This document shows positions 3,604-51,478 of a DNA stretch of 64,000 bases, one piece after another. The notes beneath the pieces were generated by a model. That model searched no databases and was not told the origin of the DNA. It saw only the letters and a list, made by a program, of their open reading frames with translations. Source of the stretch: a bacterium (GTDB lineage Bacteria > SAR324 > NAC60-12); NCBI GenBank assembly GCA_965233585.1, contig CBDDTI010000747.1:64001-128000 (forward strand), written 5' to 3'. Every line of letters begins with the position of its first letter. Positions within the stretch are counted from its first letter, which is position 1. A program made the position numbers and the translations under genes.

Positions 3604-4932
3604 TTATCTTAAAGGGTCCTTGACAGCAAATGAACGAACGAGAGTCATCGGATTGATATGTTTTCTATTGATAAAGATTTCATAATGCAGGTGAGGTCCT
3701 GTGCTTCTACCAGTGTTACCAACTGTCCCAATCACTTGCCCTCTCTTGACTTTCTCTCCTTGCTTAACAAGGATCTGATGCAAATGCCCATATCTTGTCG
3801 TGTAATTCACCTTGCGTTTTTTATCATAGGACAGCCCTTGTCCATGATGGATTTGAATAAACTTACCGTACCCCCCTTTGACACCTGCAAAGGTCACCCT
3901 ACCATTTGCAGCAACATAAATTTTCGTGCCTGTCTTTTTGGGGAAATCTGTCCCTGCATGGAACTCCCACCTTTTATTAAAAGGGCTAATTCTCTTGCCG
4001 TAATGGTCTGAAATACGTGGGTTAGCAACGGGTATGAAAGTGGGTGTATTTGCCCAAAGTTCTGATTGTTCTTCAACAGAAGAGAAAGCTGACTCAAATG
4101 ACTCAGAAACCACGTTATAATACTTTTCTGTTTGTTCCAAATAGCGATGAAAGTTGTCTGTGTCCATATAATCAATGTTCTGGTATTGATCTTTGGGGTC
4201 GCTACTCGGTCCACCTCTACCACCTCTGCTTCTGCTGGTTAGAAAATAATCTTGCACGGGGACGGTGATTCCTGTTGCTTGCTTGATTTTTTTAGCAAGA
4301 GCCATGATTGCTTGTTCTTTCTTTTTCAGCAATTCAAGGCTAGCGGCAATTTTACGGTCTGTCTTAGCAATTCTTTGTTGAAGCTGTTTAATAGTCAGTT
4401 CTTGCTCTTCTGCTGCAAATTGACGCCGAGCAAATTTTTCAACAAGAACTTGAAACTCGTCAAAATCTTGTCTGGCTCCACTCATCCATAAGATCGCATC
4501 ATCAGGGGACGACAGCTTCGCTGTATCTAGTTCTGGACACTCACGTTTGAGAGTTCCACAAGTTTCCTGGTGTAGCTGCTTCAGTGATTCCAAACTTTGC
4601 TTATAGGCACCAGCATGTGCCTGAAGTTTTTCTAATCGTTTTTCAGCAAGTTCTTTAGATTGTTCTAATGACTCCTTGAGATTAAAAATCGTGGATTCTT
4701 TGCTTTGCAATCTCGCAATTTTTTCCTGCAGTGATTTTTGATACTCTGAATCTTCTGAAAGCATCGCTTCCTGTTTGAGAATCAAGGAGTGCTGTTGGTA
4801 GAAAAAAACGGCCAACCCAGTCAATAGCAAAATCAAGGTTAAAGCTAAGAAATAGAGAGAGCGGTAACTGACAGAATAACATTGAGCTTGGGCATCTGAT
4901 CCCTTGAGCAAAATGAATGAAAAATTCTTCAT
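3604..4932 (-). CDS. M23 family peptidoglycan endopeptidase with N-terminal TM and coiled coil
   Basis: HAGTD (HxxxD), YGHL and STGPHLHYEI motifs. Confidence 0.93.
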   Translation of the reverse strand: MKNFSFILLKGSDAQAQCYSVSYRSLYFLALTLILLLTGLAVFFYQQHSLILKQEAMLSEDSEYQKSLQEKIARLQSKESTIFNLKESLEQSKELAEKRLEKLQAHAGAYKQSLESLKQLHQETCGTLKRECPELDTAKLSSPDDAILWMSGARQDFDEFQVLVEKFARRQFAAEEQELTIKQLQQRIAKTDRKIAASLELLKKKEQAIMALAKKIKQATGITVPVQDYFLTSRSRGGRGGPSSDPKDQYQNIDYMDTDNFHRYLEQTEKYYNVVSESFESAFSSVEEQSELWANTPTFIPVANPRISDHYGKRISPFNKRWEFHAGTDFPKKTGTKIYVAANGRVTFAGVKGGYGKFIQIHHGQGLSYDKKRKVNYTTRYGHLHQILVKQGEKVKRGQVIGTVGNTGRSTGPHLHYEIFINRKHINPMTLVRSFAVKDPLR

Positions 4933-5010
4933 GGCTAAAATAAAAGGTCAACAATTGAATGTAGTTGGTTCAACACAAACGGAGTATTCTGAAGAAAATT
5001 AGCCAAAGCG

Positions 5011-6066
5011 TCAAGTAGTAACTTCATCTCCATCTTTAAAAAAGAGATAATTTGATGTCTTCATCCGAATCTTTTCAGAAGGTTTCCATTCCTGAATAGA
5101 AGGCAAACTCACATTCACCTGATGTTTTGAAGCAAGTGAAATTTGTAAAATCTGATGTTCCCCTGCAAAAATAATCTTTTGAATCGTGCCATCTGCCCGG
5201 CTTTCATCTTTGACTTTATCAAGCTGCCAATGTTCAGGGCGAATCATCACCAATGTTGATGATTCTGGTATTTGAGGAGATTCAGAAGTTTCTCTTAAAA
5301 GATTCCTCACACTTTCAAAAGGCAAAAAGTTAGATTCCCCAATAAACGATGCCACCCAAGCATTGCAAGGGGTGTGATAAATGGAAGCAGGGCTTCCTTC
5401 TTGAATGAGCCTGCCACGTTGAAGCAGTAGGATACGTTCAGCAAAGGCAAAAGAATCATGTTGGTCGTGCGTGACAAAAATGGCACTGGTTTTTTCATTT
5501 TGTAAAATGTCTCTGACTTCATGTCGCAGCTGGACTCTTAATTTTTGGTCAAGATTGCTGAAAGGTTCATCTAGCAAAATCATGCGAGGTGATGGAGCAA
5601 GTGAACGTGCCAGAGCCACCCTTTGTTGTTCTCCCCCTGAAAGCTCATGGGGCATTTTTTTGCTGGCATGAGGCAAACCAATCAACTCCAACATCTGCGT
5701 AATACGTTTTCGTTTATCAGAGGATTGGCCATGTAATCCATAGCCTATGTTGTCAGAAACGTTCATGTGAGGGAACAGTGCAAGGTCTTGAAAGACAATC
5801 CCTATTTTCCTTTTTTCGGGTGCGATTGTCGTGCTTTTTGAAGAAGCACATGTTCCGTCAAGCGCAATTTTTCCGTAGTCCACATTTAAAAAACCACTAA
5901 TTAAATGTAATAAAGTGGTTTTGCCACAACCTGACGAACCTAAGACCGATAGCAACTCTCCACGCCTCATCTCAAAGCTGACATGATCCACAACATTGAT
6001 GCCATTGTATGTTTTACAAACTTCATGACATTTTAAAAGTGGCTGATTTTGTGATGGTGTGTTCAT
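5011..6066 (-). CDS. fbpC: Fe(III) ABC transporter ATP-binding subunit (FbpC-like)
   Basis: Walker A GSSGCGKT, LSGGEQQRVALAR, LLDEPF; operon with permease and binding protein. Confidence 0.88.
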   Translation of the reverse strand: MNTPSQNQPLLKCHEVCKTYNGINVVDHVSFEMRRGELLSVLGSSGCGKTTLLHLISGFLNVDYGKIALDGTCASSKSTTIAPEKRKIGIVFQDLALFPHMNVSDNIGYGLHGQSSDKRKRITQMLELIGLPHASKKMPHELSGGEQQRVALARSLAPSPRMILLDEPFSNLDQKLRVQLRHEVRDILQNEKTSAIFVTHDQHDSFAFAERILLLQRGRLIQEGSPASIYHTPCNAWVASFIGESNFLPFESVRNLLRETSESPQIPESSTLVMIRPEHWQLDKVKDESRADGTIQKIIFAGEHQILQISLASKHQVNVSLPSIQEWKPSEKIRMKTSNYLFFKDGDEVTT

Positions 6067-41048: not shown

Positions 41049-42041
41049 ATGCAGAATTTAAAGGTGAGAAGCCAAACCAATAAGGTTTTGAAAAACCAAG
41101 TCATCTGTGGAGATGCCCTAGAATTGCTTGATGAGTTAGAGGACAACTCTATTGATGCTGTCTTAACAGACCCTCCGTATTTTTTAGATAGATTGGGAAG
41201 TGATTGGAATGTCAAGAAAGTTCATAACCAAAAAAATTTAAAGGTTGTGCAATCCTTACCTGCGGGAATGAAGTTTGACCGAGAACAAGGGCAACAGCTT
41301 TACAAGTGGTATCTTCAAATTTCCAAAAAACTTTTTAGAGTTTTGAAGACAGGGGGCTTTTTCTTTTCATTTTCAAGTCCAAGACTTTATCATCGTTTGG
41401 CATGTGCAGTGGACGATGCAGGCTTTGAAATCAGGGATTGCTTCATCTGGCTTTACACTCAAAATCAAGCCAAAGCCATGAGTCTTAACCATTTTATAGA
41501 TAAGCTAGACATTGCAGAACGGGAAAAAGTACAATTAAAAAATCAATTAGAAGGCTGGAAGACTCCGCAACTGAAAAGTTGTTTTGAACCCATTGTTGTT
41601 GCTCAAAAACCTGTTGACCAAACTTACTTGAATAACATGATAAATCATCAAGTCGGCTTGCTTAATTCTCATGCTAAAACTCATCAAAAAATGTTCCCTT
41701 CCAATGTCATGTCCACTGATGAAATTTGTGACTTGATTGACAAAACATTTCTGGTTTCAAAACCAACAGCCAAAGAAAAAGGAACGTACAATCATCACAA
41801 AACTGTCAAACCTTTAGACTTGTGTAAACATCTTTTAAACTTATCGGTGTTTCATCAAGACGCAGTCGTTTTAGACCCTTTTGCAGGCAGTGGCACAACA
41901 TTAGTTGCATCAAAGGAGTTAGGATTCAACTACGTCGGTTTTGAATTAAACCAAGCCTACGTAGACATCACTCAAAAAAGACTAAAGTCTTTGGATGTTG
42001 AAGAATCCCCTCTTTTTCAATCACACGCTTCAAACACTTAA
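41049..42041 (+). CDS. Orphan N4/N6 DNA methyltransferase (beta-class motif order)
   Basis: TDPPY (motif IV) precedes H.TVKP and LDPFAGSGTT (motif I). Confidence 0.92.
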   Translation: MQNLKVRSQTNKVLKNQVICGDALELLDELEDNSIDAVLTDPPYFLDRLGSDWNVKKVHNQKNLKVVQSLPAGMKFDREQGQQLYKWYLQISKKLFRVLKTGGFFFSFSSPRLYHRLACAVDDAGFEIRDCFIWLYTQNQAKAMSLNHFIDKLDIAEREKVQLKNQLEGWKTPQLKSCFEPIVVAQKPVDQTYLNNMINHQVGLLNSHAKTHQKMFPSNVMSTDEICDLIDKTFLVSKPTAKEKGTYNHHKTVKPLDLCKHLLNLSVFHQDAVVLDPFAGSGTTLVASKELGFNYVGFELNQAYVDITQKRLKSLDVEESPLFQSHASNT

Positions 42042-43300: not shown

Positions 43301-45448
43301 ATGAATCATCAAAATTTTAAAAAACATATAGAAGATATTTTAAAAGCAGATACAAGACTTTGGTATCAAGAAACCCACGAAGACGGAACTAAAACCACCA
43401 AATTAGACCAAATCTTACTCATTGATTTAGCTGAAAAACATGATGCAAGAATCTTGTCTTTGCTCTTTGCTGATGAAACTTTAAAAGAAAAGTTTTTTGT
43501 CAAAATAGGAGAAAGTTATGTGTTTAGAAATAGAGACTTTCAATTCTTTTTAGAAGAAAACAAAGTGGATAATTCTTATACAAAATATAAAAACCGTATT
43601 GGTTTAAGTGATGGCAAAAGGTTCTTAAAAGACAATAAAGAAGTCGTTTTAAATTTTCCTTTTAAGGATTGCACTTTAGAAGGTGGACAATCAACAGAAG
43701 AAGGACAAGATAGCTATTTTGAGATTGCGGGTCAAGCCCGCAATGACGGTCACAGTCATTCCGCACTTGATGCGGAATCTCCAGAGATTTATAACCAAAA
43801 ACAAGCCAAACGCAAAGAAATCTTTTTTAATGAAATTTTAGCAGCCGATGAGATAGACCGATTAAAAGATGAAAAAGCCTTAGTGAATTGGCAACGGTTT
43901 GATGTTGATGATAAAAATGTAGGGACAGACCCACGTGTCTGTCCAAATGAAAACGGACAAACAAATTTACACGATGGACAAACACATAGGTTTGTCCCTA
44001 CGGAAATAAAACGAGACCAAAACGGCACGATTAAAGAAAATCTTATCATTAAAGGCAATAACCTTTTGGCTTTGTATTCTCTCAAAAAACAATTTGCTAA
44101 GAAAATCAAACTCATTTACATTGACCCACCTTATAACACAGGAGGCGATGCCAATATTTTTACTTATAATAATAATTTTAACCATTCTACTTGGTTAACC
44201 TTTATGAAAAATAGATTAGAGGTAGCAAGGGAATTATTGAGGGAAGACGGATTTATTGCCATTGCCATAGACCATTGTGAACTTGGCTATTTGATTGTTC
44301 TAGCTGATGAGATTTTTGGAAGAGAAAATAGATTAGGGATTATTACTGTTGTGCATAATGCTGGTGGTAGACCTGATGCAACTTTTTTCTCTGTTTCAAA
44401 TGAGTATATGCTTGTTTACGCTAAGAATAAAAGCTATGCTAAACTTAAAAATTTTGATTTGCCAGATGAAAAATCTAAAAAATATAGATATAAAGATGAT
44501 AAAGGTTTTTATAAATTAGATATTTTTCACAGAGCAAGTCATAATTCTAATAGAGAAGATAGACCAAATTTATTTTATCCAATTTTTTACAGCAAAGAAA
44601 AAAATATACTTTCTACTATCAAGAAAGAAAATTTTATAGAAATTTATCCAATAGATAATCATGGAAATGAAAAATGTTGGAGATGGAGTAAAGAAAGAAC
44701 ACAAGAAAATATAGAAGAATTAGTTATAAAAAAAATAAAAAATCAGTATAGAATTTTTGCTAAAAGCAGATTAGAAAACAATAAAGGAGATAAACCAAGA
44801 ACTTTTTGGAACGATAGTAAATATTCTGGAAGCAGTGGAAGTATTTTATTAAGTAAACTATTAGGACACTCTAAACCACTTTCATTTCCCAAATCCCTTT
44901 ACACTATTTTAGACACTCTCAAACTAACAACAGAAAAGGACGACATTATTTTAGATTTTCATGCAGGTTCTGGAACAACGGGGCATGCTGTTTTGGCTTT
45001 GAATAAAGAGGATGGAGGAAACAGGAAATTTATTTTAGTAGAGCAGTTAGACCAGCATATAGACATTTGCAAAGAACGAATACAGAAAGTATTAGAAAAA
45101 GAAAATATTAATGATTCTTTTGTCTACTGTGAAATTGCCAAATGGAACGAACAAGCGAGGGAGCAAATATTAGCTTGTCAAAGTTTAGAACAACTAAAAA
45201 CTTTTTTTAGTGAAATGGTAGATAAATATTTTCTCAATTACAACCTGAAAATAAAAGAGTTTCAAGAAAAAGTTTTGCAAGAAGATGAATTTAAAAACTT
45301 ACCTTTGAACAAACAAAAAGAAATATTTATCACGATGCTAGATAATAATCAAATGTATGTGTGTAGAAGTGAGATGGAAGACGCAAAGTTTGGCATTAGT
45401 GAGGAGGACATTGAGATGACGAGGGAGTTTTATGGCAATAATAATTAA
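43301..45448 (+). CDS. mod: Type III restriction-modification methyltransferase (Mod) carrying two in-frame palindromic insertions
   Basis: NLIIKGNNL, IYIDPPYN (motif IV), variable central TRD, FPKS, LDFHAGSGTTGHA (motif I). Confidence 0.93.
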   Translation: MNHQNFKKHIEDILKADTRLWYQETHEDGTKTTKLDQILLIDLAEKHDARILSLLFADETLKEKFFVKIGESYVFRNRDFQFFLEENKVDNSYTKYKNRIGLSDGKRFLKDNKEVVLNFPFKDCTLEGGQSTEEGQDSYFEIAGQARNDGHSHSALDAESPEIYNQKQAKRKEIFFNEILAADEIDRLKDEKALVNWQRFDVDDKNVGTDPRVCPNENGQTNLHDGQTHRFVPTEIKRDQNGTIKENLIIKGNNLLALYSLKKQFAKKIKLIYIDPPYNTGGDANIFTYNNNFNHSTWLTFMKNRLEVARELLREDGFIAIAIDHCELGYLIVLADEIFGRENRLGIITVVHNAGGRPDATFFSVSNEYMLVYAKNKSYAKLKNFDLPDEKSKKYRYKDDKGFYKLDIFHRASHNSNREDRPNLFYPIFYSKEKNILSTIKKENFIEIYPIDNHGNEKCWRWSKERTQENIEELVIKKIKNQYRIFAKSRLENNKGDKPRTFWNDSKYSGSSGSILLSKLLGHSKPLSFPKSLYTILDTLKLTTEKDDIILDFHAGSGTTGHAVLALNKEDGGNRKFILVEQLDQHIDICKERIQKVLEKENINDSFVYCEIAKWNEQAREQILACQSLEQLKTFFSEMVDKYFLNYNLKIKEFQEKVLQEDEFKNLPLNKQKEIFITMLDNNQMYVCRSEMEDAKFGISEEDIEMTREFYGNNN
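43721..43781. repeat. Inverted doublet of 27-nt GTC-tagged hairpins, in-frame in mod
   Basis: GAGATTGCGGG-TCAAG-CCCGCAATGAC, 7-nt spacer, GTCATTCCGCA-CTTGA-TGCGGAATCTC; each arm has a perfect 8-bp stem and the same loop (TCAAG/CTTGA). Confidence 0.9.
43919..44001. repeat. GTAG-family REP doublet (REPIN-like), in-frame in mod
   Basis: GTAG-GGACAGAC-CCACGT-GTCTGTCC (43919-43944) and inverted GGACAAAC-ACATAG-GTTTGTCC-CTAC (43976-44001). Confidence 0.93.
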
Positions 45449-45471
45449 AAATTTTAATAAAGGATAAGAAT

Positions 45472-48027
45472 ATGAAAAATGAATTAAAAATATTTATAAG
45501 TTATTCACATCAAGATGAGGAATATGTTACTGGATTTGAAAAATATTTTGAACCGATAAAGAATAAATATAATTTGAAGTTATGGCATGATACAAAAAAT
45601 AAAGCAGGCGATAAATTTCAGCAAAAAATAGATAAGAATCTAAATGATTCAGATATTATTCTTTTATTTGTTTCTGCTAATTTTTTTTCATCTGATGCTT
45701 GTAAAAAAGAATTAAAAGAATCTTTAAAATTAAGAAATGAGAAAAATGCTATTATTGTTCCTATCATTTTATCTACTTGTGCATGGAAAGAAACAGAATT
45801 AAAAGATTTATTATGTGTTCCAAAAGATGGAAAACCTGTATCAGATTTTGAAGACAAAAATAAAGCATGGGAGGATGTTAGTAACTCAATTAAAAAACAT
45901 ATTGAAGAATTGAATCAAATAAACAATTTAAAAATAGAAGACAGTTTTAAAAAATTTTTAGAAAGCTGTGAAATTTTGGAAAAGGCTCATCAAAATAAAC
46001 AAAATGTTTCATTAGAAGATATTTTTGTTTCTCCTCAATTAGAATGTTTTGATGAACTTAGAGAATCTGAAGAGACAACTATTAATTATCAGGAACTAGA
46101 AGAAAATATTACTGATTACAAAGCTATTGTTATAGCAGGAGATGACCAATCTGGAAAAACTACTCTATGTAAAAGATTATTTTTAGCACTAAAACAAAAA
46201 AGATATTTACCAGTTTATATTTTTGATAAAGATAAAAAATTACAAGGAAAAATAAAGAATAAAATTGAAAAGGAATTTAAAGAACAATATAACTCTGAAA
46301 ATATAGAATATTCAAAAATTATGAATAGGATTATCCCTATAATAGATAATTTTTACTTGGCTAAACAAAAAGAAAATCATATAAAAAATCTATCTGAATT
46401 TAAATTTTCTATTCTTATCATAGATGATATTTACGGTTTAAATATCAAAGACAAAGATATTATCAAAAAACATAAGCATTTTAGAATAAAAGAGTTTTTG
46501 CCTACTTTAAGAAATGATTTAATTCAAAAGTGGTTGCAATTAACAGATAAAGATAGTCATAATAACGATTCTTATAAAGAATTAGATGAAAAGACAAAAT
46601 TAATAGATACAACTTTAGGAAAGATTATAGGTAATGGAATTGTTCCATCATATCCATTTTTTATATTAACTATCCTTAGCACTTACGAAACAGTTAAACC
46701 TTTAGATGAAAACATTACTTCTCAAGGGCATTGCTATCAAGCATTGATTTACATTGCTTTAAGAAAAGAAATTGATAATAAGGATATAGATATTTATCTT
46801 AATTTTATGAATGTGATTGCTTATAAGTTCTTTGAAACTCAAAAAAAAGAATTTAATGAAGAGGAATTAAATAGTTTCATAACTGAATATAAAGAAAAGT
46901 ATAATCTTCCTTTTCAAGAAGACAATTTACTTTCCAAATTAATCAGAGTAAATATTTTGAAGAAAGATTCTTTTGGCAACATTAGTTTTAAATACGATTA
47001 TTTATATTTTTATTTTGTAGCAAAATATATTGCGGAGCATATTGATGAAAACAAAAAAACTATTGATAATATCATCGCTAATCTCCACAAAAACGAAAAT
47101 GCTTATATTACTATATTTATATCTCATCATTCTAAAGATAATTATGTTCTTGATGAAGTAGTTTTAAATGCTATGTGTTTATTTGATAAATATGAATCTG
47201 CAACTTTAGAAAAAAAGGAAATCAGCTTTTTGGATAATGAAGTAAAAAATATTATTGATGCTTCACTCCCTAAACCAGATGAAAGTTCAGAACAACATAG
47301 AGCGAAACAATTAGAAATAGAAAGTCAAATTGAAGAGTCAAAAAATAAAAAACCTTTAAATGAAGATGAACAAGATATAGACCCGCTTGATTTAGAAATA
47401 AGACGAAGTATTAAAACGGTAGAAGTTATGGGTAGAATTATCCGAAACCGTGCTGGTTCTTTAGAAAATGATAGATTAAAACAAATTTTTGAAAATGGAA
47501 TGAATGTTCATCTAAGATTCTTAAAATTATTTTTAGAGTTGATGAAAGATAAAGATCAACAAGAATTTATTATAGATTTTATACGAGATAGATTAAATAA
47601 AACAGTTAAAGAATCTAAAGAGAAGATATCAGAACAAGAATTAAAAAAAATAGCTGAAAAAATATTTTGGAATTTAAATTTTCAATTCTTATATGTTGTT
47701 ATCAATAAAACAATACATTCATTAGGATCAGATAATTTAACAAATATTACTAACAATGTGTGTGATAAAATAAATACTCCTGCTTCTTTTTTAATCAAAC
47801 ACGGTATTTTAATGTGGTATTCTAAAAATCTTCAAATTGATAGTCTTTATAAAAAAACAACAGAAAAGACGTTTTCAGATACAGCAAAAAAATTAATAAA
47901 TTATTTTATTGTATCTTATTGTTATATGCACAAAATAAATTATAAAGATAGACAAAAATTAGAACAAAATTTTGGCTTTTCATCTAAAAAATTACTTCTT
48001 AATAAACCTCAAAAACCAACGCAATAA
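45472..48027 (+). CDS. TIR-domain + STAND/NACHT-like P-loop NTPase, putative anti-phage protein
   Basis: N-terminal TIR (IFISYSHQD, LWHD, AGD, SANFFSSDACKKEL, IVPIIL); Walker A VIAGDDQSGKTT; helical C-terminus; extremely AT-rich. Confidence 0.85.
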   Translation: MKNELKIFISYSHQDEEYVTGFEKYFEPIKNKYNLKLWHDTKNKAGDKFQQKIDKNLNDSDIILLFVSANFFSSDACKKELKESLKLRNEKNAIIVPIILSTCAWKETELKDLLCVPKDGKPVSDFEDKNKAWEDVSNSIKKHIEELNQINNLKIEDSFKKFLESCEILEKAHQNKQNVSLEDIFVSPQLECFDELRESEETTINYQELEENITDYKAIVIAGDDQSGKTTLCKRLFLALKQKRYLPVYIFDKDKKLQGKIKNKIEKEFKEQYNSENIEYSKIMNRIIPIIDNFYLAKQKENHIKNLSEFKFSILIIDDIYGLNIKDKDIIKKHKHFRIKEFLPTLRNDLIQKWLQLTDKDSHNNDSYKELDEKTKLIDTTLGKIIGNGIVPSYPFFILTILSTYETVKPLDENITSQGHCYQALIYIALRKEIDNKDIDIYLNFMNVIAYKFFETQKKEFNEEELNSFITEYKEKYNLPFQEDNLLSKLIRVNILKKDSFGNISFKYDYLYFYFVAKYIAEHIDENKKTIDNIIANLHKNENAYITIFISHHSKDNYVLDEVVLNAMCLFDKYESATLEKKEISFLDNEVKNIIDASLPKPDESSEQHRAKQLEIESQIEESKNKKPLNEDEQDIDPLDLEIRRSIKTVEVMGRIIRNRAGSLENDRLKQIFENGMNVHLRFLKLFLELMKDKDQQEFIIDFIRDRLNKTVKESKEKISEQELKKIAEKIFWNLNFQFLYVVINKTIHSLGSDNLTNITNNVCDKINTPASFLIKHGILMWYSKNLQIDSLYKKTTEKTFSDTAKKLINYFIVSYCYMHKINYKDRQKLEQNFGFSSKKLLLNKPQKPTQ

Positions 48028-48707
48028 TGACCCCTAATCCCACAATCAAATCCCGCAAGCCCAACCGATTAAAAGGTTATGGTTATTCTAAGGAAGGTTA
48101 TTATTTTGTTACGATTTGTGTTCAAAATAGGTTGTGTTTGTTTGGGGATATTATAGGTGGCAAGATGGTTTTGAACAGTGCAGGAGAGATGATTAAAAAA
48201 TGGTGGTTAAAATTGCCTGAGAAATTTGAAAATATTTGTTTTGAAGATGTATTTGTTGTCATGCCAAACCATATTCATGGAATTATCATTATTGAAAATA
48301 ATAAACCCATAAGGACAAATCCATGTGTCAATGTAGGGACAGACCCACGTGTCTGTCCAGAAGATAAAAATATCAATTCAACAGACCCATCCGTCAATGT
48401 AGGGACAGACCCACGTGTCTGTCCAGAAGATAAAAATATCAATTCAGCAGAGGACAAACACGCGGGTTTGTCCCTACAAGGTTTGTCATTATCAGAAATG
48501 ATGCAATGGTTTAAAACCATGACCACAAATGAATATATCAAAGGGGTAAAAAATCAAAATTGGCAGGGTTTTGACAAAAAATTATGGCAAAGATCATTTT
48601 ATGACCATGTCATTAGAGATGAAAAAGCATTATTCAATATCCAAAATTACATTATTGAGAACCCGTTAAAATGGGAAAATGACGATTATAATTTAAATAA
48701 GATATGA
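48027..48707 (+). mobile_element. REP-associated tyrosine transposase (RAYT, IS200/Y1 HUH family)
   Basis: RLKGYGYS.EGYYFVTIC, FVVMPNHIHGII (HUH), LWQRSFYDHVIRDE, YIIENP (catalytic Tyr); no tnpB; GTAG palindromes associated. Confidence 0.92.
48309..48477. repeat. Cluster of GTAG-family REPs inside the RAYT coding sequence (66-nt period duplication plus inverted copy)
   Basis: Identical 26-nt REPs at 48333-48358 and 48399-48424; inverted variant at 48452-48477; degenerate remnants at 48309-48329 and 48381-48395. Confidence 0.93.
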
Positions 48708-51478
48708 CTCCAACTAACAACCTACACCAAACCATCTCCACTCAAAAACAAGCACTTAAAAACTTTCAACCTGAAATTTTTGAGATACCGAAATACATTA
48801 CTGATAATCTCAAACATTCTTTTTTTGATTGGCAGAGAGAGGCATTTGAAAATTTATTATTTTACGAACATCCAAATTCCAAGCTAAAAAAATCCCCCAC
48901 TCACTTAATGTTTAATATGGCAACAGGAACGGGAAAAACACTGCTGATGGCAGCAAGCATTTTGTATTATTACAAGCAAGGTTATAGACATTTTATATTT
49001 TTTGTCAATCAAAATAACATCATAGACAAAACAGAAAATAATTTTATAGAAAATACCCACAACAAATATTTGTTTACAGAGAAAGTCATTATAGAAGATA
49101 AAATTATCCCGATTGAAAAGGTCAATGTTTTTAGTGATGAACCGCAGGGCATAGAAATCAAATTTACCTCTATTCAAAAGCTCTATAATGATATTCACCT
49201 ACAAAGAGAAAACCAAACAACTTTAGACGATTTACAAAGCAGAAATATTGTGATGCTTGCCGATGAAGCACATCATCTCAATGCGAATACTAAAAAAAAT
49301 GAACAAGAAAGTTTGATACACACAGAACTAAAAGGGAACACAGGAAAAGAAATAGTAGAGAGAAAAGGTTGGGAACATACGGTTATAGAGTTGATATTAA
49401 ACAAGCAAGGTTATCAAGGACAGGAACAAAATAAAAATGTATTATTAGAATTTACAGCAACCATTCCTGATAATAAACAAGTAGCCAATAAATACCAAGA
49501 CAAAATCATTTATCAATTCACCTTAAAAGAATTTCTACAAGCAGGTTATACCAAAGAGATTAATCTTATCTCTTCTACTTTGGATAAAAAAGAAAGGGTT
49601 TTACAGGCATTACTTTTTCAGTGGTATAGGCATCAAATTGCACTTAAAAACAAGATTGCTAATTTTAAACCTGTGATTTTGTTTAGAAGCAAAACCATTG
49701 AAGAATCTAAACAAGATTATGAAGAATTTTTAACTTGTATAGAAGATTTAGAAAGTAAAGATTTTGATTTTTGTCAAACCATAGCAAGTAAAATTCATCA
49801 AGCTCATAAAACTAACCCAAATGAAATCGGAAAATCCAGAACAGAGCAGGTTTTAAACTATATCCAAAAAAATAATATTCAATTTGTAGAGATTAGCGAT
49901 TGGATAAAACAAAACTTTAAAGAACAAAATACCATTATCACTAATTCTAAAACCAACACAACCAAAAAGGAAAAAACAGAAGAAGAGACAGAGAAATTGC
50001 TTAATTCTTTAGAAGATAAAAACAACCATATCCGAGCTATTTTTACGGTAGATAGATTGACAGAAGGTTGGGATGTGCTGAACCTTTTTGATATTGTGCG
50101 GCTGTATCAAGGGCAAAATACAGGGGGAAGCACGAAAAAGACCCCTGAAGCTACTACCAAAGAAAAACAGTTGATAGGTAGAGGGGTACGGTATTTTCCT
50201 TTTCAATTTCAAGATCAACAAGTCAACAAAAGAAAATTTGATAATGATTTAAACGATGAACTTAGGATTTTAGAAGAATTGTTTTATTATACCTATGATG
50301 AAGATTCAAAATATATTTCACACTTAAAAGCAGAATTGAAAAAAGATGGTTATATAAAAGACGATAGAACCATTAAAACCTTTGATTTAAAAAGTGATTT
50401 TAAACAAAGTTGTTTTTATAAAGAAACTATTATTTGGTATAATGAACAAAGAGATAACCCAGAGAGAAAAAAGAAGGATTTACAAAATATCAAACAAGAT
50501 TTTAGCTTTGAATATAAAATTCAAGACTTAGAGCTAACAGAGCAAAAAGGTATTTTAGATAAAACAGAAAGTCAAGAATCATTACAAATAGCTGAACAGA
50601 GAAATAAAAGAATTAGTAAAAAATTTAGTGAGATTGAAAAACATATTTTTTACAAAGCAATCAACATCAAAGCAAAAGCAGAGGGTTCTCTTTTTCAATT
50701 TGAGAATTTAAGAAAGGAATTAGCCATTACAAGTATAGATGATTTAAGGAAAGATGAATTTTTAGGGAATTTGGAACTCAAAATAATTACCAATACGAAT
50801 TATGAAGAGATAAGCAATAAAGATAAATTAGATTTAACATTAAAATTTTTAGATAAAGCTATCAATCAACTAAAAGAACATATTCACCCCAAAATAGGCA
50901 GCGAGTTTAAAGCAGGCAATTTTGATACATTTTTTAAACATCCAAAAAGGAAAAGTATTGAACAAAACAATTTAGATCTAACTATTCCAAAAGACAATCA
51001 ATGGTATGTTTTGGATACTTTTGTTGGAACAAACGAAGAAAAAGAACTTGTGCAATTCATCAAAAATAGCATCAGCAATTTGGAGGAAACCTATCAAGAG
51101 ATTTATCTTTTAAAAAATGAAGAAGTCTATAAAATTTATAACTTTAAAGATGGAAAAGGCTTTGCCCCAGACTTTCTTTTATTCCTGAAAACAAAGGACA
51201 AACAAAACACAGGCGTTGCCAGCACAGAAATTTATTACCAAATTTTTATAGAACCAAAAGGGGATCAATTCAAAGATTTGGAAGGTGGCTTTAGAAACTC
51301 TAAAGAAAGTTGGAAAGAGGAGTTTTTAGAACAAATCACCAAAAAATATGGTTTTGGTAAGGTAATAAAGGCAGAAAATCCAAATTATAGATTGATAGGT
51401 CTGCCTTTTTATAACAAAGCAAGTCAACAAATCTTTGAAGAGGAATACAACAAACTTTTAAAATCTGATGAGTTTTGA
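48704..51478 (+). CDS. res: Type III restriction endonuclease subunit (Res; SF2 helicase-like ATPase + PD-(D/E)xK nuclease)
   Basis: FNMATGTGKT, LADEAHH, FTAT, EGWDV, QLIGRGVR, FAPDF...FIEPKG. Confidence 0.93.
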   Translation: MTPTNNLHQTISTQKQALKNFQPEIFEIPKYITDNLKHSFFDWQREAFENLLFYEHPNSKLKKSPTHLMFNMATGTGKTLLMAASILYYYKQGYRHFIFFVNQNNIIDKTENNFIENTHNKYLFTEKVIIEDKIIPIEKVNVFSDEPQGIEIKFTSIQKLYNDIHLQRENQTTLDDLQSRNIVMLADEAHHLNANTKKNEQESLIHTELKGNTGKEIVERKGWEHTVIELILNKQGYQGQEQNKNVLLEFTATIPDNKQVANKYQDKIIYQFTLKEFLQAGYTKEINLISSTLDKKERVLQALLFQWYRHQIALKNKIANFKPVILFRSKTIEESKQDYEEFLTCIEDLESKDFDFCQTIASKIHQAHKTNPNEIGKSRTEQVLNYIQKNNIQFVEISDWIKQNFKEQNTIITNSKTNTTKKEKTEEETEKLLNSLEDKNNHIRAIFTVDRLTEGWDVLNLFDIVRLYQGQNTGGSTKKTPEATTKEKQLIGRGVRYFPFQFQDQQVNKRKFDNDLNDELRILEELFYYTYDEDSKYISHLKAELKKDGYIKDDRTIKTFDLKSDFKQSCFYKETIIWYNEQRDNPERKKKDLQNIKQDFSFEYKIQDLELTEQKGILDKTESQESLQIAEQRNKRISKKFSEIEKHIFYKAINIKAKAEGSLFQFENLRKELAITSIDDLRKDEFLGNLELKIITNTNYEEISNKDKLDLTLKFLDKAINQLKEHIHPKIGSEFKAGNFDTFFKHPKRKSIEQNNLDLTIPKDNQWYVLDTFVGTNEEKELVQFIKNSISNLEETYQEIYLLKNEEVYKIYNFKDGKGFAPDFLLFLKTKDKQNTGVASTEIYYQIFIEPKGDQFKDLEGGFRNSKESWKEEFLEQITKKYGFGKVIKAENPNYRLIGLPFYNKASQQIFEEEYNKLLKSDEF

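Follow-up and report, generated by a model that had tools for sequence, protein, structure and literature searches.

The Rickettsia palindromic elements (RPEs) are palindromic insertions that lie in frame within protein genes (Ogata et al., 2000, as related in PMC3733652 and PMC3184786); RPE-1 has a length of 105–146 nt, and the short RPEs bear a CGTC tag. REPs with a GTAG or a CGTC tag have likewise been catalogued in frame within genes, and more than half of them form dimers or groups encoding 20–30 aa (Di Nocera, De Gregorio, Rocco, 2013; PMC3733652). That catalogue reports that some genes were hit twice, lists in the supplement an N-6 DNA methylase, Oter_3011, with a GTAG dimer, and mentions an insertion site in common for just one gene, recB, in two Xanthomonas species. 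With respect to the enzymes, TnpA-REP cuts and rejoins single-stranded REP DNA, and the binding and cleavage of single-stranded REP by the cognate TnpA-REP are known from other groups; the account covers tests of groups 2 and 3, not of subclass 2.4 (PMC8266576). The latter subclass has in-frame REPs inside its gene between HuH and Y as its unique mark, according to Quentin et al. (2018; PMC6006769). The further literature used on the question of what is known or new was PMC3184786 and PMC5581495.

Here, we analyzed a bacterial DNA stretch of 64,000 nt (the window), in which an intact type III R-M mod gene carries an 83-base, GTAG-tagged REP doublet in frame (Table 1). Similarly to the intragenic REPs of PMC3733652, this is a tagged in-frame dimer encoding 20–30 aa in a gene that was hit twice, and because intragenic GTAG dimers are already catalogued there, the event is of a published kind and changes little by itself. 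Unlike the cases in the same source, the mod gene of the window holds two different REP superfamilies, and one of its loops has been used repeatedly in distant homologues. The initial annotation had compared the doublet with the RPEs, as a non-autonomous palindrome that creates new protein sequence, and this likeness holds for the in-frame insertion itself, which adds about 25 aa in a predicted loop. Unlike the RPEs, the mod doublet is GTAG-tagged, 83 nt long and accompanied by an adjacent candidate transposase, so it does not belong among them; a CGTC doublet in the same gene (site A) is the closer RPE analogue. Our preferred reading, to which we assign a probability of roughly two in three, is that the doublet was copied by the REP-associated tyrosine transposase (RAYT/TnpA-REP) encoded 4 kb downstream and persists as a neutral passenger in a predicted surface loop, probably because this loop tolerates insertions.

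Table 1. Features of the mod–res operon, with positions counted from the first base of the window.
Feature	Position	Strand	Remarks
Type III R-M Mod methyltransferase, 715 aa	43301-45448	+	PF12564 + PF01555; PADLOC MTase_III E 1.7e-158
CGTC-type REP, first unit of site A doublet	43721-43747	-	Residues 141-149; 60 exact assembly copies
CGTC-type REP, second unit of site A doublet	43755-43781	+	Residues 152-160; 44 exact assembly copies
GTAG-tagged REP1, 8-bp stem	43919-43944	+	Residues 207-215 of Mod
31-nt spacer between REP1 and REP2	43945-43975	+	Holds partial REP arm
GTAG-tagged REP2, facing REP1	43976-44001	-	Residues 226-234 of Mod
TIR + STAND-NTPase gene between mod and res	45472-48027	+	PF13676, PF24406
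RAYT/TnpA-REP, 226 aa	48027-48707	+	PF01797 25.7 bits, cut-off 23
REP in RAYT gene	48333-48358	+	Same as REP1 over 30 nt, flanks included
REP in RAYT gene, second identical copy	48399-48424	+	66-nt tandem duplication
Inverted REP in RAYT gene	48452-48477	-	Convergent with 48399 copy
Type III Res subunit, 924 aa	48704-51478	+	PF04851; PADLOC REase_III E 5e-101; helicase + nuclease motifs

Two REP doublets in frame in a type III mod gene

The mod gene has an open frame with the DPPY motif at residues 275–278 and the FHAGSG motif at residues 553–558, and this beta-class order (DPPY before FxGxG), together with the linked res gene, identifies its product as a type III Mod. Its structure model matched 6K0W, the EcoP15I Mod 4ZCF and the Mbo45V protein 7DSU, and with these type III Mod subunits it shares the same beta-class methyltransferase core in both sequence and fold; the sequence matches to the solved Mod structures start at residue 246–247, and the PF12564 region with both inserts lies outside them. 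A second, stand-alone N6/N4 methyltransferase gene (PF01555) is located 1.3 kb upstream of mod, at 41049–42041.

Each unit of the GTAG doublet consists of 26 nt with an 8-bp stem and an unpaired GTAG foot, within the 20–40 nt range of this class. The coordinates, the orientation of the units, the 31-nt spacer and the partial arm within it (GGACAAAC, 43955–43962, 21 nt ahead of the matching start of REP2) were found as the initial annotation had given them. It had also placed the translated doublet just before the NLIIKG block, and this was confirmed: the doublet is read in phase 0 and ends 12 residues short of that block (residues 247–252). The REP1 pattern had four matches in the window at ≤3 mismatches and none in 100 shuffled sequences. 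Two of the three frames of REP1 are open, and for the whole doublet on this strand the used frame alone is open. The remark that this reading avoids the TAG stop was thus correct as to the frame, but any surviving insert must keep an open frame, so the avoidance indicates survival only. Furthermore, the covarying stem pair that had been described is real, being A–T in 37 and G–C in 7 of the 44 full-length genomic copies and mismatched in none, but the claim drawn from it, that the hairpin is kept rather than the peptide, did not hold, as the covariation separates REP subtypes genome-wide. Since the covariation is a subtype trait and REP1 equals the copies in the RAYT gene, nothing in it shows selection at the mod site.

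For the comparison of the loop that contains the GTAG doublet (site B), 222 proteins were gathered, of which 209 could be parsed at this position. The loop measures 45 aa in the Mod of the window and 20 aa in 168 of the 209 homologues, i.e., there is an excess of about 25 aa, where 25–30 aa had been expected. Homologues that keep the peptide without the palindrome, which would have spoken against an insertion, were not among them: no homologue has the peptide. The net gain is 75 nt for an element of 83 nt, which implies either the loss of a few bases or a different ancestral loop. The best Mod homologue is only 64% identical, and the search revealed no empty allele above about 64% protein identity; likewise, we found no empty-site orthologue in 40 relatives or in 87 other genomes of the phylum, where the best matches were ~58–67% identical and covered part of the gene. 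AlphaFold2 with a 147-sequence alignment (mean pLDDT 80.7; a single-sequence model with a pLDDT of 33.6 was discarded) placed the segment outside the catalytic core, in a loop modelled with low confidence, much as the initial annotation had anticipated. The pLDDT was <50 at residues 208–229, between a predicted strand (194–201) and a block with a pLDDT of 88, and mostly >90 in the core; because the segment has no alignment depth, a low pLDDT is expected there, and the floppy loop is to be read as a prediction. This loop belongs to the N-terminal part and precedes DPPY by about 40 residues, and methylation is predicted from the model to be unaffected.

Absent from the initial annotation were the downstream RAYT, the repeated use of the loop and the second doublet in mod. 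This site A doublet (43721–43781) is in frame and lies in a predicted strand-loop-strand, with pLDDT <50 at residues 146–161; no single unitig bridges it, because the graph breaks at high-copy units. Among relatives, the length of the site A loop varies (9, 28, 39–40 or 53 aa). P0224, which is 63% identical to the window Mod and forms a clade with it and P0002 (support 0.90), has an insert similar to the window's at site A, and its site B holds a module resembling the CGTC type; in P0002, neither site has a clear insert. This pattern suggests that site A may be older and that the filling of site B was a separate event. For the CGTC family, no GIY-YIG partner was evident on the six bacterial contigs, which held one of 45 matches.

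A RAYT gene in the same operon

The genes are arranged in the order mod, TIR/STAND, RAYT and intact res, and this block has a GC content of 24–34%, compared with 42% in the flanks. The TIR/STAND gene scored 464 bits with NF053861 (DS8), below the cut-off of 790, and matched PDC-S60 in PADLOC with an E of 2.8e-72; it is related to DS-8 and PDC-S60, but its TIR is N-terminal. Judged by its sequence, it is a candidate anti-phage gene. The RAYT gene translationally overlaps both neighboring genes, which leaves no space for REPs on its flanks. The number of promoter-like sites was about that expected by chance (13 versus 10.4), and the terminator-like matches at REPs were on the opposite strand. 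In Res, a loop within the nuclease motif (51119–51280) is 7 residues longer than in most homologues (34 versus 27 aa); the longer loop is common to five close relatives and has no hairpin.

The RAYT scored 65 bits with NF047646, below the cut-off of 80. It has NHIH at residues 81–84 and WQ at residue 187, in agreement with the NH[IFV]H and WQ of subclass 2.4, and in its tyrosine motif, YIIENP (208–213), the Tyr and NP are present, with E for the first N of YIxNNP. Three in-frame REPs lie between HuH and Y (residues 103–150), as in subclass 2.4, and the copies at 48333 and 48399 make REP1 a REP associated with a RAYT that carries the same REP. The likeness to TnpA-REP subclass 2.4 (RAYT Group 4), as this is described in PMC6006769, thus comprises NHIH, WQ, in-gene REPs and long GTAG REPs with a G–C foot, along with a tyrosine motif that partly resembles YIxNNP, and on these features we call the enzyme subclass-2.4-like. 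Unlike the subclass as described there, the RAYT of the window sits within a type III R-M operon, has the motif YIIENP, and contains a REP variant that is otherwise found in mod alone.

The exact sequence of REP1 has three copies in the assembly, one in mod and two in the RAYT gene; a different, majority variant accounts for 27 of the 44 full-length copies. Convergent GTAG doublets among the 50 copies were confined to mod and the RAYT gene, and the remaining 12 close pairs were direct repeats. REP2 differs from the inverted copy in the RAYT gene at 3 of 26 bases. Homology between the spacers of the two doublets was rejected, as they showed no significant likeness (p 0.38). A tblastn search of the assembly with the RAYT returned only itself, and a plasmid search gave three weak RAYT matches. 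The Pfam search of the genome missed even the RAYT of the window, and since this enzyme is also under the NCBIfam cut-off, another mobilizer could be missed as well. By analogy with published TnpA-REP biochemistry, the HUH/Tyr enzyme would bind a folded single-stranded REP via the GTAG foot and would cut and rejoin single-stranded DNA, so that REP copies would be deposited. Most landings in genes would presumably kill the cell or be purged, with survival limited to those that preserve the frame within a tolerant loop.

Unrelated palindromes at the same loop of other mod genes

In scattered homologues, including a paralogue in this genome, the same loop is taken up by palindromes of unrelated families. 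A tagged-hairpin scan of 144,014 nt of mod genes from 77 loci gave five matches: canonical CGTC-type REPs at site B in three loci (L008, L056, and L062), and two matches elsewhere in ordinary sequence. By eye, L059 also has an imperfect CGTC-type hairpin at site B, and on C295 a CGTC REP directly precedes the same conserved block in a mod fragment. In the genome of the window, two tandem mod paralogues on C746 differ at site B, one being empty and one having a C-run/G-run hairpin. These two type III genes (L091:1039-2898 and 3610-5517; G000 C746) have different middles and lie ahead of a single res. Ten further proteins have peptides at the loop that look REP-like at the protein level. In a tree of loop-excised cores, the 14 labelled tips among 190 needed 14 changes, i.e., the REP-like tips were scattered; most of these labels are peptide look-alikes without DNA, P0135, P0201, and L062 were lost from the tree at parsing, and P0121 and P0128 may represent one event. 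About 2–4 of the 144 parsed representatives of 50% clusters have a REP-derived look at the loop, which is therefore a recurrent but minority target.

Other scans added little. A peptide-motif scan placed 14 of its 17 matches at sites A and B, a circular result since the motifs were modelled on those sites. A metagenome pattern scan for longer loops returned five loci, of which three were ordinary length variants. L097 and L099 have a repeat-like peptide at the loop, but their DNA folds weakly and they were not counted as palindromes; the repeat-like insert at the same loop in L099 (1501-1578) contains an in-frame TAG, where L097 has a sense codon.

No RAYT homologue was found at the 77 other mod loci, many of which are incomplete, so a neighboring RAYT is not needed for insertions at the loop. 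Inserts at such loci are what would be seen if the insertion in the window, although real, had been made by another mobilizer or by recombination with an older REP at the site, the identity with the RAYT copies being the result of later conversion. Three close relatives with GTAG-like peptides at the loop (P0003, P0121, and P0128) and three proteins whose loops end in PT[AE]IKRD like that of the window (P0002, P0044, and P0169) point in the same direction, as does P0224, whose site B module looks like a copy of the one at its site A. However, P0224 is among the nearest relatives and carries a different family at site B, and the RAYT gene is the only other place with the exact variant and the convergent layout. 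We consider this origin unlikely, and prefer copying by the RAYT of the operon.

REPs and R-M genes in the genome

The REPs lie on six gene-dense contigs (2.96 Mb in total); the other 9 Mb have a low ORF density and contain no copies. About 9 of the 12 Mb of the G000 assembly are apparently not part of the bacterium. In the census of the six contigs, 19 of 584 REPs were located in ORFs ≥200 aa, compared with 454 expected. By peptide listing, the GTAG REPs are multicopy and mainly extragenic, and at most 7 of their 44–50 copies lie in ORFs ≥200 aa or the RAYT (5 in mod and the RAYT). Ten of the 19 intragenic REPs are in R-M-like genes, which make up 3% of the long-ORF bases. REPs occurred in 3 of 42 R-M-like genes and in 6 of 1756 others (Fisher p 9e-4), a post hoc comparison in which copies within a gene are non-independent and a Res fragment was added to the R-M list by hand. 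One match of the census, in RF1, has three mismatches and is probably due to chance. REPs of the CGTC type also lie in frame in lipoprotein-like genes with no R-M relation (L100:1269-2972 and L092:736-3669). REP arrays flank a 22-member coiled-coil family with a nuclease-like C-terminus, at G000 C746 88540-93393, with five members in tandem, and at about 20 other places; large secreted or lipoprotein genes are often REP-flanked too.

Two of the three REP-bearing R-M genes are damaged, so relaxed selection explains part of the enrichment. The mod operon itself might accordingly be under relaxed selection or decaying, with REPs accumulating in it as they have in the other damaged R-M genes of this genome, i.e., a type ISP gene with four REPs that is frameshifted at both ends and a Res fragment with two REPs that sits among IS pieces. 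The 26 PF01555 matches in the genome would add redundancy. Nevertheless, mod and res have their full length and intact motifs, and both mod inserts are in frame, in loops of varying length among relatives; relaxed selection on the operon or its decay is thus quite improbable. The type ISP gene (L088:341-5656; G000 C747) has REPs of the CGTC type, and its 3' frameshift is close to the last of them.

RAYT homologues were present in 12 of the 88 genomes of the phylum, that of the window included, and 5 of 15 RAYT loci (L109, L115, L117, L123, and L125; three genomes) were flanked by type I R-M genes. Together with the 10 of 19 intragenic REPs in R-M-like genes and the strong RNA hairpin formed by the doublet (-35.3 kcal/mol, z -7.3), these five loci could be taken to mean that the insertion was selected, either as an RNA hairpin tuning the translation or mRNA decay of mod against res, or with the loop as a recombination or regulatory site. 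Most homologues have no insert, and the inserts that do occur differ in family, frame and length with no conserved sequence among them, which makes selection for the insertion highly improbable.

At the level of the reads, one 4602-nt unitig (43755–48356) in runs X1 and X2 and one 1934-nt unitig (43755–45688) in run X3 span the doublet and its unique flanks with no differences. An assembly chimera with the RAYT repeat, an objection raised in the initial annotation and suggested by one X1 contig (depth 2, 28-nt side) that joins 43945 to 48328 at 85% likeness, has next to no probability given these difference-free unitigs from three runs, the uniqueness of REP2 and the spacer, and the lack of any variant or joint at the doublet in a narrower lay of the reads, which excludes the RAYT side. 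X1, X2, and X3 represent a single sample, from which the assembly may itself derive; they rule out a mis-join but give no independent support. In run X4, a second sample, the cover over mod is too low to reveal an empty allele.

With copying by the neighboring RAYT as the preferred origin of the doublet, the window offers a tidy test case, in which a probable donor and a target with the exact repeat lie within one 8-kb operon, and the subclass that the donor resembles, 2.4, is biochemically unstudied in the literature consulted. With this loop, a widespread Mod family has a site that naturally tolerates insertions. The open lead is the association between RAYTs and R-M genes. Our literature search, with subscription journals mostly outside its scope, found no reports of R-M genes as REP hotspots or of RAYTs nested in R-M operons. 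A broader and doubtful proposal is that subclass 2.4 RAYTs have their home niche in R-M operons, where the enzyme would reside inside mod-res and hsdS-hsdR, seed its repeats at fixed loops of the R-M proteins and be retained for a service to the defence locus; this service may be single-strand cutting, or the moving and diversifying of the cassette. If this were true, the window would be a case caught in the act, with donor and target in one operon. If RAYTs regularly nest in R-M operons, this would bear on why bacteria keep single-copy transposases.
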